In this document: in pieces, positions 16,370 through 31,858 of the stretch
How the letters are laid out: each line of letters begins with the position of its first letter
Position numbering within the stretch: position 1 is the first letter of the stretch
DNA from: Pirellulales bacterium
GTDB lineage: Bacteria; Planctomycetota; Planctomycetia; Pirellulales; PALSA-1355
Direction: 5' to 3'
DNA: 64,000 bases
NCBI GenBank assembly: GCA_963733035.1
Contig: CAVTBU010000007.1
Coordinates: 1 to 64,000, forward strand
Position numbers and translations under genes: made by a program
The notes under the pieces: generated by a model
Databases searched by the model: none
Told to the model about the DNA's origin: nothing
What the model saw: the letters and a program-made list of their open reading frames with translations, nothing else

Positions 16370-16699
16370 TTTCACTCCACCAACAACAATAATACGCATG
16401 CGCAGGCAGTCTCCGAGCGACGGTTCGGGCATGGTGCTCGGCCACGCCGGTGAAGGAATCGGGCCGGGTGCGCTGGGCGGCGATGTGAACCAGTTCTACA
16501 GCCTACACGGCGACGGGGTCAATTTTTTGTTCGCAGTCGTCCCGTTTGGCTTGCCACACTCGTTGGACATCGTCGGTCGGACAAAAGAAGCCCGCGATGT
16601 TGGCAACCCGCACTCCATTGTTGGGGTGCTCGATCGGCAGATGAAAATGGATGACATCGTGAAATGCCGATTCTTCCATCTGGGGCAAGATCATCGAAG

Positions 16700-17379
16700 C
16701 CCAGCCCGACCCCGGACCAGTGGACCAGTTCGTGGAAGTTGGTTGAGATGAAGTCCTTCTGAGAAACGAATTGGCTCGGGTGCGGCATCTGGATGTAGTC
16801 GCCGCCAGTGTGGTGGGGAAATTCCCCACGAAGTCGCACATAGAAGGCTTTGTCGCCGCCGAAATGAATCTCTGCCTTGGTCGCCTCGATTGCGGTTCGA
16901 GCAGGTTCAAAGTCAGGTTCGAGCGAAGACGGCTCGGAATCGGCACTGGCTCGAAGATGATCGACGCTTCCACCGTCCACCTGTTCGATGTTGAAGACCG
17001 TGTAGTATCGGAGGATAGGGAAGGTCTGGACCTTCTCCTCGCCGTCCTCGCCCTTCGTCCGTTTCACCTGCTTGTAGAAGACGATTTGGGTGCCCCAACA
17101 TCCAGGCTTCACGTCGCCGGGGCGCTTCTGGACCTGAGCGCCAAGGCTTGCCCATTGCTGGTAGGTGCCCCAGTAGCGGCTCACGTAGCCCCGGGACATT
17201 GCAGCCAAATCCAAAAGGATTGGATTGATGCCCGAGTAGGATCGTCGAGAGACGACGTTTGCGGGAACTCCTGCGTTCTCATTGGCACGCCAGGGTTTTC
17301 TCCAGGGAACGACGCCGTTTTTGAGTCCCTCGATGATGCGGTCGGTGATCTGCTTCTGGATTTCCGATTGGCTCGGCAT
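16700..17379 (-). pseudogene. ardC: ArdC-family antirestriction ssDNA-binding protein, C-terminally truncated
   Basis: GVVPWRKPW, YSGINPILL, WGTYQQW, YYTVFNIEQV, HELVHW; family resemblance ends just after HExxH although the ORF runs on to 16519. Confidence 0.8.
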
Positions 17380-17440
17380 GACTGGCTCCTTCTGAATGAG
17401 TCAGCCATGAGATGTACAAATAAACTATGCGTATGCCGCA

Positions 17441-17468
17441 TTGACACGGTTGGTCAGTCAAGTAGACT
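17441..17468 (+). promoter_or_regulatory. Sigma70-like promoter
   Basis: TTGACA-N16-TAGACT upstream of the Hcp-like PEP-CTERM gene. Confidence 0.4.
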
Positions 17469-17610
17469 CGGGACGGCAACAGCCACGCTGACTGAGAAAC
17501 GCTTATTAGCCGATTTCAAAGCCCGACCTTTCTGCAATTGCAGAGATGGCCGGGTTTTTTTGTTCAAGAGGGAGCTGAAACTCGCAAAGGCCACAAACTG
17601 GAGCACCTCA

Positions 17611-18498
17611 ATGCCACAATCTCGGTCAAACGGTCATCGTGCCTCGGTTGTCGTCCTTCTATGCATCTTAACCACGTGCATTTCGCCTACCGTCGTGGAG
17701 GCCACGTCAACCTATGTCTACGTCCAAAGCATCAGCGGTGGTGACTCAACGCCTGGATATCCTGGCGCAATGGCGGTGCAGTCGCTGAGCATATTTCCAG
17801 GCGGGTTCTCGATGGTGAAGAGGGTCGATTCCGCCTCGCCGCAGATTCAGTCGGACGTGATCAGTGGGACGCTTTTTCCACAGGCGAGCCTGTTGTTTTA
17901 CAACTCCACGCCCTTCGGCCAGCCGGATGCAAGCGTGAACATCAACAATGCGATTGCCAACAACTACCAGCTTCTGGGAGGAACTCCTTCTCAGGAGCGA
18001 GTTGGTTTCGATGCGACCATACCCGTCTCTATGTACCTTGATGTGCCAGGAATCACTGGCGAAAGTTCGGCACCGGGATACTCGAATCTAATGCAGATTG
18101 ACTCCTTCTCGTTGTCGGACAATAGCTTCTCGATTGTGAAGCAAGTCGATACGGCGTCCCCCGAGATTAGTATGGCGGTCACAAATGCGACATTCTTTTC
18201 GAGCGCACTTCTTCTCCTGTACGACTCGGCTCCCAGCGGTCCACCCGATGCCGTGCTCAGCCTGCACGAAGTTCTCGCCAGCAGCGTGCAGCCTGATGGT
18301 GGCGGCGACAGGCTCCTGGAGCTAGACTCCTTCAGCTTCACGTATCTCACCCCCGAGCCATCGTCTTTGGTGCTGATCGGGCTCAGCCTTGCGACGTTCA
18401 TGGCCGCGACCGGCTTCGAGATTCAAGTCCGGCGAGCGTCGCCCAACTCCTCCCAAGAGAGCGCATTGTTGCCCGAAGTGACCGCACAATCTGAATAG
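17611..18498 (+). CDS. Secreted protein with two Hcp-like domains and a PEP-CTERM-like anchor
   Basis: Signal peptide; two repeats containing I(S/T)G(G/E) and FS(M/I)VK(R/Q)VD(S/T)ASP; TPEPSSLVLIGL plus hydrophobic stretch. Confidence 0.72.
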   Translation: MPQSRSNGHRASVVVLLCILTTCISPTVVEATSTYVYVQSISGGDSTPGYPGAMAVQSLSIFPGGFSMVKRVDSASPQIQSDVISGTLFPQASLLFYNSTPFGQPDASVNINNAIANNYQLLGGTPSQERVGFDATIPVSMYLDVPGITGESSAPGYSNLMQIDSFSLSDNSFSIVKQVDTASPEISMAVTNATFFSSALLLLYDSAPSGPPDAVLSLHEVLASSVQPDGGGDRLLELDSFSFTYLTPEPSSLVLIGLSLATFMAATGFEIQVRRASPNSSQESALLPEVTAQSE

Positions 18499-18725
18499 GC
18501 TCCATGAACGTCGGAAAAGCTGGTCGTGTTGTAAGCGTTTCAGCAACGACACCCTAATCGGCGCTCTGCGTCGCCCGTCGAAACCGGGGTGGTCAGCCTC
18601 ATCCGTTGCCGATCATCACTGAAGCCGCAGAGTGCAGCCAGTGCCAAAAACGGTCGTTAGATCGGAGTTCGAAGAAACGGATGGGAGGATGCGACAACGG
18701 CTGGAAGAGGTCGATGCGGGCCTTT

Positions 18726-19367: not shown

Positions 19368-19984
19368 GTCAAGCCTCGATCGCGGAAACGCGAGAGTGGT
19401 CCCCTGCGAGGCTTGGCGGCGGCGCCGCCCAGCAACTACCTGCGGCCAAACTTGTCAAAGCTGGGCCAATGCGCGCTTCGATTTCGCGTCCCAAAGTCGA
19501 GTAGTTCCACACATATTCCCGACCCGCTGCTGACGCCCGGAGCGCTACGGGAAAAGAATTGGGGCCCCCCCCGACGGCACGACCATTCTGCCGTCGAACA
19601 GCGGCCGCCTCAGCTACTTTGTTGCTTGGTCCGTTGGCTGCTTCGATTGCGGTTCTGCTGGTTTCCGGTAATCGCCGATGACACCCTTCAGGGGGCAGAC
19701 GGAGAATGCCGGACACTGCTTGCAGCCGACTGCCAGAGCGATTGGGCAAAGAGTCATCTCAGTTTCTCCCTCGAACGACAGGGTTCAACGGCGCGCGAAC
19801 GATTCCATGGCGATTCTGATCATCCTACCAGCCTTCCGGTACAGCGGTACGCAATTCGCGCATCGTCATACGGTCGATTTTTGCGATTTCTGAGGAATTC
19901 TTGGGTTATCGCCACAGAGTCTGCCCTGCGGGTGACGGTTATCTTTTGGAACCCGTCGAACCGGGACGATATCATGGTCAGGTG

Positions 19985-20554
19985 ATGGCTGACATCACCC
20001 GCATCCTGTCCGCTGCCGAACAAGGCGACCAGCACGCCGCCGAAGAGCTATTGCCGCTGGTCTACGAGGAATTACGACGGTTGGCCGCTTCCAAATTGGC
20101 CGAAGAGAAGCCGGGACAAACGCTCCAGGCGACGGCCTTGGTTCATGAGGTGTACATCCGCCTTGTCGACACCAGACAGGCACAGCGGTGGAACAGCCGG
20201 GGGCATTTCTTTGCCGCAGCCGCCGAAGCCATGCGGCGAATCCTGATCGAGCAGGCGCGTCACAAGCTCACCGAAAGGGCCGGAGGCAAGGCTCAGCGCA
20301 TAGACTTTTCGGCCATCGAAGGGGTGCTACCCGACGCCGGCGTTGACCTGCTGGCCTTGAACGACGCGCTCGATAAGCTGGCCGTGAAGGACGCGCGCAA
20401 AGCCTTGCTTGTAAAGCTGCGTTTTTTCGCCGGCCTGACCGTTCAGGAGGCCGCCGAGTCGCTGGGAATCGCGGCGTCAACCGCTGACGCGGATTGGGCT
20501 TATGCACGAAGCTGGCTTCGAGTCGCGATGTCGGCCGACTCCGAGCCGGACTGA
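19985..20554 (+). CDS. ECF sigma factor, planctomycete STK-associated type
   Basis: LLPLVYEELRRLA, TLQATALVHEVY, HFFAAAAEAMRRILI, DWAYARSWL. Confidence 0.93.
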   Translation: MADITRILSAAEQGDQHAAEELLPLVYEELRRLAASKLAEEKPGQTLQATALVHEVYIRLVDTRQAQRWNSRGHFFAAAAEAMRRILIEQARHKLTERAGGKAQRIDFSAIEGVLPDAGVDLLALNDALDKLAVKDARKALLVKLRFFAGLTVQEAAESLGIAASTADADWAYARSWLRVAMSADSEPD

Positions 20555-20665
20555 GGCCCCAGCGAATTTTTCGCAAAATCTCGGTTTCCATCGGGTGATC
20601 CGCACGTTTTTCTCGCACTGACTGACAGACAATCGAGCTGCGCGCCTGCGCGGCGGGGAGATTCC

Positions 20666-23600
20666 ATGACCAATCACAAACCTGACGATGAGGCGATTTT
20701 CAAAGTCGCCCGGGAAATTAAGTCGTCCGATGCGCGGGACGCTTATCTAGAGCAGGTTTGTACGGACGACCAAGAACTTCGCGCGCGGGTCATTTCGCTG
20801 CTCCGGGTAGAAGAGGAGCAACCTTGTTTTCTGGAATCCCCGATATCGGTGATCGTCACGACTGAAGATCCCCTCACCGAGCAAGCCGGGGTGCAAATCG
20901 GCCCCTACAAACTGCTGGAGCAGATTGGCGAAGGTGGCATGGGCGTCGTCTACATGGCCGAACAGCAGGTGCCGGTGCGGCGGCGGGTCGCGCTCAAGAT
21001 CATCAAGCCGGGCATGGACTCGCGCCAGGTGATAGCCCGCTTTGAAGCCGAGCGCCAGGCGTTGGCCTTGATGGACCATCCGAACATCGCCCGAGTGCTC
21101 GAGGCCGGGACGACCGATACGGGCCGGCCGTACTTCGTCATGGAGCTGGTGCGTGGCGTGCCGATTACGGAATACTGCGACCAGGCCAATCTCTCGGTGC
21201 GGGATCGGCTGGAGTTATTCGTTCAGGTTTGCCATGCAGTGCAACACGCCCATCAGAAAGGGATCATCCATCGCGATCTCAAGCCGTCGAACGTGCTGAT
21301 CACGCTGCACGACGGCCGGCCGGTTCCCAAGGTGATCGACTTTGGAGTCGCCAAAGCCACGAATCAGCAACTTACGGAAAAAACGCTGTTTACGAACTTC
21401 TCGCAGATGATTGGCACTCCGCTGTACATGAGTCCAGAACAGGCCGAGATGTCGGGCCTCGACGTCGATACACGCAGCGACATTTATTCGCTGGGCGTGC
21501 TCCTCTTTGAACTTCTAACGGGCACGACTCCGTTCGACCGAGAGCGCCTACGCCAGGCGCCCTTCGACGAGATCCGCCGTATTATCCGCGAAGAGGATCC
21601 CCCCAAGCCAAGTGCAGCCATCGACACGCTCGGCCGAACTCGCACGACCACGACAGTCCAGCGCGCGGTCGAACCCTATCGCTTCTCGCAGCTCCTGCGT
21701 GGGGACTTGGACTGGATCGTGATGAAGGCCCTGGAGAAGGACCGCTCGCGGCGATACGTATCGGCCGATGGGCTGGCACGCGACGTCGAGCGATATTTGC
21801 ATGACGAGCCGGTCGAGGCACACTCGCCGTCCGCAATTTATCGACTGCGCAAGTTCGCACGCCGCAACCGTGCCGCGCTAATTACGGCAGTTCTGGTTTC
21901 CACCGCCTTAATCGTAGGCACGGCCACTAGTACATGGCAGGCCGTGCGCGCCTGGCACGCCGAACGCTTGGCCGACGCAGCGCGCCTCGAGGAAACTCGG
22001 CAGCGACGAATTGCTGAAGACCAGCGAAACGAGGCGGAAAAACAGCGTGGTCGGGCCGAAGCAAATTTCCAACAGGCACGCAAGGCCGTTGACGATTACT
22101 TGACTGCGGTGAGCCAGAGCAAACTGTTCGACGTGCCGGGGTCACAGCCGTTGCGCAAGGAATTACTCGACTCGGCGCTCGCTTATTACAAACACTTCAT
22201 TGACCAGCATGCCGACGATCCGACGGTCCAGGCGGAGTTGGCAGCCGCCTACCTCCGCGTCGGGGACATCACTAGCGCGATGGGCGCCAAGGATCAGGCA
22301 CTAGAGGCGATCCAGAAGGGAGCGGACGCATACGAGCACCTGGCGAACGACAGACCAGAGGTCGCGGCCTATCAAGCAGGGCTGGCCAGCGCGTTGAATG
22401 AGCGAGGCGTCGTCGAACGAGCCCTGGGACGACTGCCTGATACTGAGGTCTCCTGCCGCCGCGCTCTGGCAATCTATGAGACGCTTGCCAGGGAGTATCC
22501 AGAAGTCGACGAGTACCGGGACGGCGCTGGCAAGGCGCAGACGAATCTCGGCGTTGCACGCAGCGCGGCTGGTCGGACGGCTGAGGCGGAAGCGTCCTAT
22601 CGAAGTGCCATCGAGATCTATCAACAGTTCGTTCGCCGACACCCGGAAGTTCGCACGTATCGAGCAGATCTGGCCAATGCACTTTATCACCTCGGCCATT
22701 TGCAGCGGGCCGCGCACGAGCTAGTCGAGGCGAAAGCGTCGTTCCAACAAGCCGGCCAGGTATACGAAACGCTCGCCGCCGAGGATGACCGTGTCGCGAC
22801 GTATCTCTTGGGCGTCGCCCACGCCCAGTATAATCTCGGCATCGTGAACCGCGCGCTCGGACAAGCTACCGAGGCTGCGGATGCCAATCAGCGGGCCCGG
22901 GTGGCCTACGACCAACTTGGGAGCCAGAACCCGACGGTCGCGAGCTACAAGATTGGCCTGGCCCGATCCTGCTACAATCTCGGCTTACTGCAATCCGAGC
23001 TCGGCCAACCTGGCGAGGCTCAACAAAGCTGGATCTCCGCGGCCGCGGCCTATGGTGCTGCCGCCGAGCTTGGCTACTCGCAGGCGGCCGCATCTTCGGG
23101 ACTGGCTGACTCGCTAGCCATGCAGGGCCGCTGGCAAGACGCCGCCGACGCCTACGCCGACGTCGCGCTTGCCGGCAACCACGCCTTGAAGCCGTTGGTT
23201 CGTCTGGCCCTGCTGTATGCGGGCGCTGGCAACGACGCGGAATATCAGGCGACATGCGCAGAGCTTCTGCGACGATACGGCGAGCAGGCGAATGCCCTTG
23301 ATGCGCTGTCGATCGCCGCGGCTTGCACGATCGGCGAGCACGCCGTTGAGGATCTGCCTAAGGCGATCGAGATCGCTCAGAGAGCCGTGGTGTCTGATCC
23401 GGACAACCCCGCTTGCCGCGCGGCTCTTGGGGTCGCTCTGTTCCGCACCGGCCAGACAGAGAAAGCCATCGCAACACTCAAAGAGGCTCTACCGCTGCTT
23501 GCCGCGGCTGAGCAGTCAGCGCCGCAGCAACTAGACCGGATCCAGACGAGCCGCCTCGCCGCGGAAACGATCCTGGCGCTGGCGTATGACCAACAACAAG

Positions 23601-23782
23601 ATCAGCAATCGCTGGCCACGCAGATCCAGAAACTCCAGCGGCTGGTCGAAAACCAGGCAACAAGGCCTCCCAAGTACAGCGAAGGGACCGACTCCTGGCT
23701 GGTTCCACTCTGGATTCACATAGCCCAGCGCGAGCTGAGACAACTGACATCGCCTACCGCGGCGCCGGGAGAGTCGCGATGA
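20666..23782 (+). CDS. Membrane Ser/Thr protein kinase with C-terminal TPR repeats
   Basis: [28 protein letters not shown]; one TM segment; TPR-like helical repeats. Confidence 0.95.
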
Positions 23783-30154: not shown

Positions 30155-31831
30155 ATGGGCGCTGTTTTCAAGAAGACCTACACGAAGCCTGTGCCCGCCG
30201 GCGCTAGAATCGTCAATCGCAACGGCAAACGGCAAGCGCAGTGGCGCGACAGCAAAGGCAAGCTCCGTCGGGCCGACTTGACGACCAGCCGAGACGGCAA
30301 GGAGCGGATCCTGCTAACCGCTGGGACCTATACTGCCAAATATCGCGACGGTCAGGGTCTGCTTCGGGAGGAAACCACTGGCTGCCGCGATGAGGCCGCA
30401 GCACGCTCTGTCCTCTCCAGTCTGGAGCGACGTGCTGAGAAGGTCAGGGGGGGCCTGTTGACCGCCAGCGAAGCTGCTGCGATCGATCATCAAGAATTGC
30501 CGCTCAGCCAGCTCTTCGACGCCTACTTGGTCAAATTGCGATCGGGAGGCACTTCAGCGGTCCATCATGACAATGTTCGTCGCTGTTTGCGACGTGTCGC
30601 GAGGGACTGCAAATTCACGCGGCTCGCGAACTTTTCGCGTGAGGCACTGGAACGCTGGCTGGTCGCCGAGCAGGAAGCGGGCATGAGTGCCCGGACGCGG
30701 AATGTACACAGAGCCGCACTTGTAGCCTTCTGCAACTGGTGCGTCGAAACGAAGCGTTCCGTGTCTAATCCGTTCACCAAGGTCGCCAAGGCAGACGAAG
30801 ACCTCGACCCCAGGCGTCGACGGAGATCGCTAACGGAGGATGAGCTAGTCCGGTTGCTCGAAGCGGCGCGAAAACGGCCTCTACTCGACGCGTCGACCGT
30901 GCGACGCGGGAAGCGGAAAGGTCAGATTGCCGCCACACTCAAGGACACGACGCGTGACCGCCTGGAGCGGCTGGGTTGGGAGCGTGCCTTGATCTATAAG
31001 ACCTTGGTTCTCACGGGGCTGCGAAAGGGCGAGCTCGCATCGCTGACGGTCCAACAAGTCCGTCTGGACGCCCCCACGCCTTATCTTCTGCTCAACGCCG
31101 CCGACGAGAAAAACCGCCAGGGTGCCCATATCCCGCTGCGTGTGGACCTCGCCGATGACTTGCGGCGGTGGGTAGCCAGCATGCGGCCTGCGGGCACAAA
31201 GGAATTGCCGCCGAGCACTCCGCTCTTCAGCGTGCCGAATGGGCTGATTCGCATCTTGGATCGGGATCTGGTGGCTGCGGGCATCGCTCGGCGGGTTCAG
31301 GTTGCTCCGAACAAATGGGTGATTGATAAGCGCGACGAGCGCGGGCGCACGATCGACGTGCATGCATTGCGGCACACATTTGGTACGCTGTTGAGCGCGG
31401 GCGGCGTCATGCCACGTACCGCCCAGGCTGCTATGCGTCATTCCGACGTGAACCTGACTATGAACGTGTACACCGATCCGAAGCTATTGGACGTGGCCGC
31501 GGCCCTTGAGTCGCTGCCAGCGCTCCGGCTGCCTGCATGCCTGGATGGGCAGGAGCTACAAGGTAATGTCGAGGCACTCTCGGTGACGTCTAACGGCTTC
31601 CGAGATTCGGAGCATGCACCAACGCTTGCACCGACGACTGTCCAAACTCGACAAATGGGGGCAATCGTGGACCGGATTGCTGCCTCGGCTCATGATTGCG
31701 GCAATAACGCAGCCGTTGCCGTAGACGTCAGTGCTGACAAAGACTTACGGCCGCTGTCCGCTCTAGACAACGGCCGTCATCAAGCGAGGGTGAAGGGACT
31801 TGAACCCTCGGCCTCTAGCGTGACAGGCTAG
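30155..31831 (+). CDS. Tyrosine recombinase / phage-type integrase
   Basis: TGLRKGEL, EKNR, HALRHT, MRHSD, MNVYT catalytic set; adjacent to a tRNA 3' end. Confidence 0.95.
   Translation: MGAVFKKTYTKPVPAGARIVNRNGKRQAQWRDSKGKLRRADLTTSRDGKERILLTAGTYTAKYRDGQGLLREETTGCRDEAAARSVLSSLERRAEKVRGGLLTASEAAAIDHQELPLSQLFDAYLVKLRSGGTSAVHHDNVRRCLRRVARDCKFTRLANFSREALERWLVAEQEAGMSARTRNVHRAALVAFCNWCVETKRSVSNPFTKVAKADEDLDPRRRRRSLTEDELVRLLEAARKRPLLDASTVRRGKRKGQIAATLKDTTRDRLERLGWERALIYKTLVLTGLRKGELASLTVQQVRLDAPTPYLLLNAADEKNRQGAHIPLRVDLADDLRRWVASMRPAGTKELPPSTPLFSVPNGLIRILDRDLVAAGIARRVQVAPNKWVIDKRDERGRTIDVHALRHTFGTLLSAGGVMPRTAQAAMRHSDVNLTMNVYTDPKLLDVAAALESLPALRLPACLDGQELQGNVEALSVTSNGFRDSEHAPTLAPTTVQTRQMGAIVDRIAASAHDCGNNAAVAVDVSADKDLRPLSALDNGRHQARVKGLEPSASSVTG
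31747..31777 (-). terminator. Hairpin just downstream of tRNA-Asp
   Basis: ACGGCCGTTGTC-loop-GACAGCGGCCGT on the minus strand, followed by AAGTCTTT. Confidence 0.45.
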
Positions 31832-31858
31832 CGCTCTAACCAACTGAGCTACACCCCC
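31785..31858 (-). tRNA. tRNA-Asp (GTC), CCA not encoded
   Basis: GGGGGTG TA GCTC AGTTGGTTA GAGC G CTAGC CTGTCAC GCTAG AGGCC GAGGG TTCAAGT CCCTT CACCCTC G folds as a cloverleaf. Confidence 0.97.

Follow-up and report, generated by a model that had tools for sequence, protein, structure and literature searches.

A predicted exosortase cargo built from two short Hcp-like domains in a soil planctomycete

The stretch of DNA analyzed here (the window) comprises positions 1 to 64,000 of contig CAVTBU010000007.1 from a Pirellulales bacterium, a soil planctomycete whose genome assembly of 6.65 Mb in 10 contigs is 92.3% complete. The window contains a gene for a 295-residue protein (P0001), in which a signal-peptide-like leader is followed by two domains similar to Hcp (TssD), the tube protein of type VI secretion systems (T6SS), and by a tail of the PEP-CTERM type (Table 1). 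The data showed that this double-Hcp gene is a real gene and a member of a real family, and that its product is an undescribed variant of a known fold, with the Hcp fold as the probable passenger of the PEP-CTERM/exosortase system. An earlier note on this DNA had described two alignable repeats of about 105 residues in the open reading frame (ORF). The frame was confirmed, and the two halves of the gene (17701–18030 and 18022–18351) aligned without gaps with 39 identities in 92 positions (42%, E 1e-22). The Pfam profile of Hcp, PF05638 (T6SS_HCP), matched the whole protein with 54.7 bits against a gathering cut-off of 23.5, and it also matched each repeat taken alone, with 23.5 bits for repeat 1 and 38.5 bits for repeat 2, where profile positions 1–122 of 129 were covered within 104 residues. 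The TssD subfamily model TIGR03344 scored 15.9 bits, which is below its cut-off of 58.9.

The structure of P0001 was predicted by AlphaFold2 with an alignment of 27 relatives. The model had a mean predicted local distance difference test score (pLDDT) of 86.3 and a predicted template modelling score (pTM) of 0.72, and the pLDDT was above 90 across residues 31–240, including the junction of the two domains. The best Foldseek matches of the model in the PDB were all Hcp chains (8yun, 4tv4, 5xhh, 7fcf, and 1y12), with E values of about 2e-7 to 2e-6 and target-normalized TM-scores of 0.55–0.74. The alignment of the model to Pseudomonas aeruginosa Hcp1 (1y12_C) by VIA-align gave a Z score of 14.9 with a root-mean-square deviation (rmsd) of 2.0 over 110 residues. 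A VIA-align search independent of Foldseek placed 3v4h_B first (Z 14.4), followed by tube proteins of phages, pyocins, and extracellular contractile injection systems (Z 7–10), and Hcp chains ranked top in all three PDB searches, in agreement with the β-sandwich and flanking helix of the Hcp fold. Chain 5xhh_A aligned to model residues 30–138 (Z 14.8, rmsd 1.9, 107 residues), and tube-fold chains such as 9b45_S (Z 9.1) aligned from residue 139 or 140 to residue 250. Foldseek matches to the double-barrel proteins MrkH and YcgR were set aside, as their rmsd was 19–20. The fold search of BFVD returned matches of low TM-score only (query-normalized value at most 0.26, large rmsd), with no clear two-domain viral match among them.

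The comparison of the family profile with Hcp 7fcf showed which parts of the canonical domain are absent. Query positions 133–159 corresponded to chain residues 5–31 and positions 161–237 to residues 54–133 (E 7.5e-7). This left without counterpart both residues 32–53 of 7fcf, an extended loop of about 22 residues, and the part after residue 133, which is the C-terminal hairpin formed by the last 30 or so residues. Hence, the proposal of the earlier note that the protein consists of two Hcp-like domains, both without the long loop, agrees with the profile and model searches, and the missing C-terminal hairpin is added here. In the VIA-align comparisons single Hcp chains often aligned to model ranges from residue 31 to residues 204–221. 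We read these ranges to mean that strands of domain 2 occupy the place of the missing C-terminal hairpin of domain 1, in which case the two domains would form one tightly packed unit.

The ends of the protein point to export and anchoring. By a heuristic of our own, the leader has basic residues R5, H9, and R10 followed by an 11-residue window with a mean Kyte-Doolittle hydropathy of 2.9; in the model it forms a helix at residues 9–23 with low pLDDT, and the likely cleavage site lies after VEA, before residue 32. The C-terminal part consists of the TPEPSS motif, an 18-residue hydrophobic stretch, Arg-Arg, and 20 more residues. Among 27 aligned relatives P248 and E249 were invariant, and P250 was at least 90% conserved. 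The genome encodes two exosortases, with 215 and 195 bits to PF09721 and 152 bits each to TIGR02602 (cut-off 105.55), and contains 96 PEP-CTERM matches at E ≤ 0.1. Thus, the signal peptide and the TPEPSS motif with its hydrophobic anchor, both described in the earlier note, find support, with a PEP-CTERM-type tail encoded in a genome that has two exosortases.

The only Hcp match in this genome is the gene described here, and profile searches of the assembly detected no VipB/TssC, TssF, or phage-type sheath. The absence of T6SS genes, which had been noted for the window, therefore holds genome-wide for the markers tried (TssC, TssF, sheath, and other Hcp). When the five genomes of relatives were added to our own, exosortase was present in all six carriers of the gene and TssC in two of them (G401 and G402). 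A Sec leader together with a C-terminal membrane tail appears topologically incompatible with assembly of a T6SS tube in the cytoplasm. Taken together, the sequence and genome data give good support to export, anchoring, and independence from T6SS, and we are highly confident that the protein is an exported, T6SS-independent exosortase cargo with the Hcp fold.

Table 1. Features of the double-Hcp gene and its surroundings in the window.
Feature	Position	Strand	Basis or remark
ArdC-like anti-restriction gene, divergent neighbor, probably truncated	16519..17379	-	ArdcN 123 bits
Stretch of 1.24 kb common to L005/G401 (L005 2036-3277)	17290..18531	+	megablast; 97.7% identity, flanks unmatched
Promoter-like site TTGACA-16 nt-TAGACT	17441..17468	+	consensus scan, 10/12 matches
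Imperfect palindrome/hairpin (39 nt) followed by seven T, in the 5' leader about 50 nt before ATG	17519..17563	+	inverted-repeat scan
Shine-Dalgarno-like GGAG	17600..17603	+	7 nt 5' of ATG, read from sequence
Coding sequence of P0001, 295 aa	17611..18498	+	ATG at 17611; stop 18496-18498 included
Signal-peptide-like leader, residues 1-31	17611..17703	+	basic n-region and hydrophobic core
Hcp-like domain 1, residues 34-140	17710..18030	+	PF05638; pLDDT 92-97
Hcp-like domain 2, residues 141-245	18031..18345	+	PF05638; pLDDT 91-98
Pro-Glu-Pro motif, residues 248-250 (within TPEPSS)	18352..18360	+	conservation in relatives
PEP-CTERM-type tail: hydrophobic helix 251-269 and basic pair R274-R275	18361..18435	+	model helix 252-273; PF07589 residues 247-264
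20 extra C-terminal residues 276-295, poorly conserved	18436..18495	+	unaligned in most relatives
Extracytoplasmic function (ECF) sigma factor (PF07638), then 1,038-aa Ser/Thr kinase with TPR repeats	19901..23782	+	1.4 kb downstream of the double-Hcp gene
tRNA-Asp (GTC)	31784..31858	-	accounts for the 76-nt, 99%-identical match of G401

The start of the gene differs from the public gene call (P0002, 228 residues, 17812–18498), which begins at Met68 and thereby omits the leader together with the initial strands of domain 1. This start is probably wrong, because the relatives align from the leader onward and because the sole difference from the related locus L005 upstream of Met68 is synonymous. 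The gene stands alone, with a gap of 231 nt on its 5′ side. The promoter-like site in this gap is weak evidence, since the consensus scan found one such site against 0.6 in shuffled sequences. Between this site and the ATG lies the leader hairpin, which appeared in both the minimum-free-energy and the centroid folds and might act in attenuation, serve as a palindrome for protein binding, or be what is left of a terminator; Rfam had no match in 17300–17700. Sigma-54 promoters of PEP-CTERM genes are described for proteobacteria in the accessible text of Haft et al. (2006; PMC1569441), and upstream of the double-Hcp gene inspection by eye only gave no convincing match to such a promoter.

Relatives of P0001 were collected in two ways. 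A word-indexed search returned 30 relatives, while an exhaustive HMMER search of 1.84 billion cluster representatives returned 128 with E ≤ 1e-3, of which 74 reached E ≤ 1e-10 and 35 reached E ≤ 1e-30. The two-domain set consisted of 72 proteins of 230–400 residues with two short domains each, in which several of the exceptions to the following counts are metagenome fragments. T6SS_HCP matched 71 of the 72. By our own heuristics a leader was present in 66, as in P0001, the motif with a hydrophobic stretch and a basic cluster in 61, and a linker of only 0–1 residues between the domains in 62. The PEP-CTERM tag was detected in 47 (E ≤ 0.1), LPXTG in 2, and VPDSG-CTERM in 1, which suggests that the PEP-CTERM tag has been exchanged for other surface-sorting tags in some relatives. 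In dozens of relatives at 35–50% identity, the leader was conserved along with the two domains and the PEP motif. The family spans Planctomycetota, Acidobacteriota, and Verrucomicrobiota, and the genome-borne relatives came from a Planctomycetota metagenome-assembled genome (MAG; 94% identical), Terriglobales, Verrucomicrobiae, a MAG labelled Enterobacteriaceae, and Tepidisphaerales. Within 401 Planctomycetota genomes, of which six candidates each were scored, the family profile matched strongly in our own genome (G000) only. The other ten genomes with matches had weak ones (E 9e-9 to 7e-6), nine of them in open frames of 164–230 residues, which is the ordinary size of Hcp; ordinary Hcp itself was found in 98 of the 401.

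The short Hcp module is also found in other arrangements. One-domain versions with a leader and PEP-CTERM exist (for example P0068, P0087, and P0155). The metagenomic protein P0097 has a single copy of the module behind a C-type lectin domain, and P0100, also metagenomic, has two copies behind FG-GAP repeats, in both cases directly before a PEP-CTERM-type tail and thus in a membrane-proximal position. In P0037, P0045, and P0046 other domains, and not an anchor, come after the pair of Hcp domains. A search for longer fused forms gave one match, the metagenomic protein P0192 (736 residues), where the Hcp pair and a complete PEP-CTERM tail continue without a frame break into a second signal peptide, after which come a GH43 glycosidase and an F5/8 type C domain. 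In a quick tree of 156 domain sequences, in which many forks were unresolved, 55 of 71 first domains fell on one side of a branch with a Shimodaira-Hasegawa-like approximate likelihood ratio test (SH-aLRT) support of 94, and therefore the duplication is old in the main family. Separate duplications appear in at least three other places of the tree (the P0061 clade with support 97, P0128 with 99, and P0145 with 88), which points to repeated origins of the tandem arrangement.

The number of Hcp domains per chain was followed further by a Pfam scan of 50 additional relatives (16 plus 34), which yielded 35 proteins with at least three Hcp stretches. Six stretches were found in 29 of these (P0116, P0120, P0122, P0139, P0140, P0143, P0158–P0177, P0179, P0182, and P0183), five in one, four in two, and three in three, so that six was the maximum among the 35. 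Of the six chains with fewer stretches, four seem to be truncated, since P0178 has its start within the array, the first or last domain of P0146 and P0154 is incomplete, and P0137 ends off-pattern; the remaining two are P0180 and P0181. The six-Hcp chains are exported proteins of 1,029–2,164 residues, many of them from Planctomycetota, with a repeat period of about 170–185 residues and linkers of about 45 residues. Some carry the Planctomycete extracellular N-terminal motif, and their C-terminal additions include PKD, Big_13, cadherin/Big_9 with RTX, Calx-beta with dockerin, and SdrD_B. NCBI names such proteins, for example P0173, ‘type VI secretion system tube protein Hcp’, and full-text literature searches found no paper on six-Hcp exported proteins. 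The single-chain model of P0122, built with 17 sequences in the alignment, had a pTM of 0.81 and a mean pLDDT of 82.6. Such a pTM suggests a closed and fixed arrangement of the six domains, that is, a ring made by a single chain, unlike that of beads on a string. The occurrence of complete chains with one, two, or six Hcp domains would likewise fit a ring with six positions. For the double-Hcp protein itself, the trimeric pseudo-hexameric ring suggested in the earlier note gains indirect support from these chains, from the near absence of a linker in 62 of the 72 two-domain relatives, from the model ranges to which single Hcp chains align, and from the repeated tandem duplications. We regard the chances as evenly balanced that three chains form a six-domain ring.

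These data lead us to the proposal, to which we assign a probability of roughly 0.55, that P0001 is a PEP-CTERM/exosortase cargo that presents a rigid pair of minimal Hcp β-sandwiches outside the cytoplasm, independently of any T6SS and probably as a trimeric ring. According to its sequence, the protein would be exported through Sec by its N-terminal leader. Its C-terminal helix would hold it temporarily in the inner membrane, and Arg-Arg would face the cytoplasm. Pro-Glu-Pro would then be recognized by either exosortase, which could lead to cleavage or transfer toward the outer envelope or the exopolysaccharide layer, as in the model of Haft et al. (2006). The mature part of about 215 residues (32–247) is predicted to consist of the two Hcp-like domains joined without a linker, and three such chains would probably assemble into a six-domain ring through the usual side-by-side interface of Hcp. 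Without the extended loop and the C-terminal hairpin, this assembly would probably stay a lone ring or platform, with no stacking into tubes. Given what PEP-CTERM cargo is thought to do, the protein likely serves the cell surface or matrix as a structural or adhesive component.

Several observations weigh against this proposal. On the side of sorting, the PEP-CTERM models that bear on the exosortase assignment of the earlier note gave a divided result: TIGR02595 scored 13.2 against a cut-off of 16, and for the protein PF07589 gave 17.5 bits (cut-off 20.7), while the six-frame scan of the genome brought PF07589 at this locus to 20.8 bits, just above the cut-off. The 20-residue tail beyond the basic pair is also unusual for a PEP-CTERM protein. 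With a genome about 92% complete, the absence of T6SS is not proven. No conserved neighbor genes were recognized by eye in the ORF lists of five related loci (L005–L009). A search of sequencing runs returned four soil-metagenome DNA rows from one study, with shares of 0.11–0.28, and listed no RNA run. On the side of the ring, the six-domain proteins are distant relatives with full-length Hcp domains, unlike the short domains of P0001, and their counts are not independent, because they were found from only two queries and share ancestry. In canonical Hcp, contacts within rings and tubes involve both the extended loop and the C-terminal hairpin, which are deleted here; therefore, the capacity to form a ring may have been lost.

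This deletion also favors a different outcome of the same export and sorting, in which no ring is formed and the protein acts in the envelope or matrix as a monomeric, compact β-sandwich, serving as a spacer or binding module in the fashion of immunoglobulin-like domains. The placement of the short module before the PEP-CTERM tail in P0097 and P0100, as is known for generic stalk domains, and the presence of other domains instead of an anchor in P0037, P0045, and P0046 are consistent with such a function. On the other hand, a pair of domains predicted with high confidence and without a linker is not expected of a generic spacer, and a generic spacer would also not explain why complete chains hold mainly one, two, or six domains; the pTM of 0.81 of the six-domain relative P0122 can be added. 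We consider the monomeric spacer unlikely, although it is the most probable of the alternatives. If the trimeric ring is preferred, the observations can be extended, tentatively and at less than even odds, to a broad undescribed class of Sec-exported Hcp rings with no part in injection, each ring made of six one-domain chains, three two-domain chains, or one six-domain chain and serving as an extracellular platform or pore-like unit. In the double-Hcp family such rings would be fixed by exosortase to the envelope or exopolysaccharide, and the loss of the loop and hairpin would prevent their stacking.

The surroundings of the gene point to recent mobility. The stretch shared with locus L005 of the Planctomycetota genome G401 is about 99% identical from position 17356 onward, while the rest of the 9.2-kb L005 had no megablast match anywhere in our genome. 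When G401 was compared with 19.4 kb of neighboring window DNA, only two gene pieces at 78–79% identity were found, plus short stretches of at most about 190 bases, one of which (99% over 76 nt) overlaps tRNA-Asp. Because the conserved genes of G401 are only about 78% identical and the flanks of L005 are unrelated, the gene with its 250-nt leader has moved recently between distantly related genomes, and we take this 1.2-kb cassette to be a recent horizontal transfer. A tRNA-flanked island was considered and rejected, as there is no tRNA within positions 1–30000 of the window or in L005. Upstream of the gene in L005 lie what appear to be an integrase and a small DNA-binding protein, as judged by eye from the ORF list. 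In the window the divergent neighbor is the ArdC-like gene, where the zincin domain reaches only profile positions 3–57 of 126, and which is probably a pseudogene or a remnant of a conjugative element. The GC content of 15.5–19.2 kb is about 0.565, compared to 0.60 for the window. The genes further downstream, an ECF sigma factor and a Ser/Thr kinase (Table 1), form a pairing typical of Planctomycetota.

The comparison with L005 also informs about selection. Across codons 1–268 there are two non-synonymous and six synonymous differences, which corresponds to a ratio of non-synonymous to synonymous rates (dN/dS) of 0.11, although based on small numbers. Two length differences of 2 nt (+2 and −2), at 18414 and 18461–18462 and 47 nt apart, completely alter residues 269–284 in the basic region after the membrane helix, and the frame is restored for the last 11 residues. 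The replacement of these residues between the copies suggests that the cytoplasmic tail beyond the helix is loosely constrained.

A role in conflict is another explanation, in line with the decoy suggested in the earlier note, namely that the protein is a periplasmic or surface mimic of a tube subunit that caps, traps, or misdirects incoming T6SS tubes or phage tails. The recent movement of the 1.24-kb cassette between distant genomes, the integrase-like ORF (seen by eye) adjoining the gene in L005, and the location in a stretch of lower GC (0.56 against 0.60) next to a truncated ArdC gene are features that speak for it. However, PADLOC had no match for P0001 or its three neighbors, no phage family was matched at E < 0.04 (the best PHROGs match, at E 0.047, was disregarded), and tblastn found no match to P0001 in plasmid and phage records. 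Moreover, the loop and the C-terminal hairpin, which are the surfaces for docking onto the end of a tube, are exactly those deleted. We consider this explanation very unlikely. The least probable explanation, that a T6SS hcp gene carried along on a mobile island has decayed or lost its function and persists here as a remnant, would account for the lack of T6SS partners in the genome, the truncated ArdC neighbor, the +2/−2 pair of indels in the C-terminal tail, and the public gene call at Met68, but is contradicted by the intact frame with its low dN/dS, by the retention of leader, both domains, and PEP motif in the diverged relatives, and by the synonymous nature of the only L005 difference upstream of Met68.

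The architecture itself is not new to the databases. No description of a double-Hcp PEP-CTERM architecture was found in the full-text literature, a coverage outside which most subscription journals lie. Automatic annotation already calls some members ‘PEP-CTERM sorting domain-containing protein’ and others ‘type VI protein secretion system component Hcp’. The ESM Atlas contains a cluster of 57 members, with T6SS_HCP in 100% and PEP-CTERM in 98%. In the accessible text of Howard et al. (2021; PMC8262886), Hcp genes with a PEP-CTERM signal were removed before the Hcp tree was built, and hence the combination had been seen and set aside earlier. A metaproteomics paper mentions T6SS_HCP-domain proteins and PEP-CTERM proteins separately among extracellular granule proteins. 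What is new here is the exosortase-anchored, loop-less, two-domain form of Hcp. As Hcp is treated as a marker of T6SS, Sec-exported surface proteins labelled ‘T6SS component Hcp’, as here and in dozens of relatives, inflate T6SS counts for bacteria from soil. Soil and biofilm bacteria have abundant PEP-CTERM/exosortase cargo, of which very few members have a known structure or role, so a cargo with a confidently predicted and possibly ring-forming fold offers a tractable model for the action of exosortase and the destination of its substrates. If the ring is true, the tail-tube fold, known from phage tails and injection machines, would have a third life in building extracellular structures.

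The features of P0001 can be compared with those of several known systems. With Hcp/TssD it shares the fold and a recognizable sequence family (PF05638; 1y12), and it retains the GxxGE(S/N) and K-x-D-x-A-S-P signatures. Canonical Hcp is, in contrast, a single leaderless domain of about 160 residues that assembles in the cytoplasm and is encoded in a gene set with TssB/C, whereas P0001 has a leader, two domains of about 105 residues without the 22-residue loop and the C-terminal hairpin, and a PEP-CTERM tail. Like PEP-CTERM/exosortase (EpsH) cargo, it combines a signal peptide with a PEP motif, a transmembrane helix, and a basic cluster, and the genome of P0001 has exosortase and many PEP-CTERM proteins. 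According to the accessible text of Haft et al. (2006; PMC1569441), PEP-CTERM genes are single genes after a long intergenic gap, which is similar to the isolated double-Hcp gene with its 231-nt upstream gap, and their products have ‘little homology to known proteins’. P0001 differs from such cargo in that its passenger is a well-known fold of injection machines, in its borderline profile scores, and in the extra 20-residue tail.

Trimeric pseudo-hexamers made of tandem tube-fold domains are known from the VgrG/T4 gp27 hub and from T5 pb6. A further example is the duplicated tail-tube protein of phage P74-26 (8ed0), which has two tube-fold domains per chain, as does P0001; chain 8ed0_A spanned both domains of the model, albeit weakly (model 58–246 to chain 143–339, Z 7.1, 104 residues, VIA-align), while no VgrG or gp27 chain was among the best 50 matches of either VIA-align search. 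VgrG, gp27, and 8ed0 are different from P0001 in being parts of phage tails or T6SS spikes that are made in the cytoplasm and contain long insertions. The six-Hcp exported proteins (P0122 and P0173) resemble P0001 in having Hcp domains behind an export-type N-terminus together with surface domains, and they differ from it in having six full-length domains in one chain, a Planctomycete extracellular N-terminal motif, and no PEP-CTERM.

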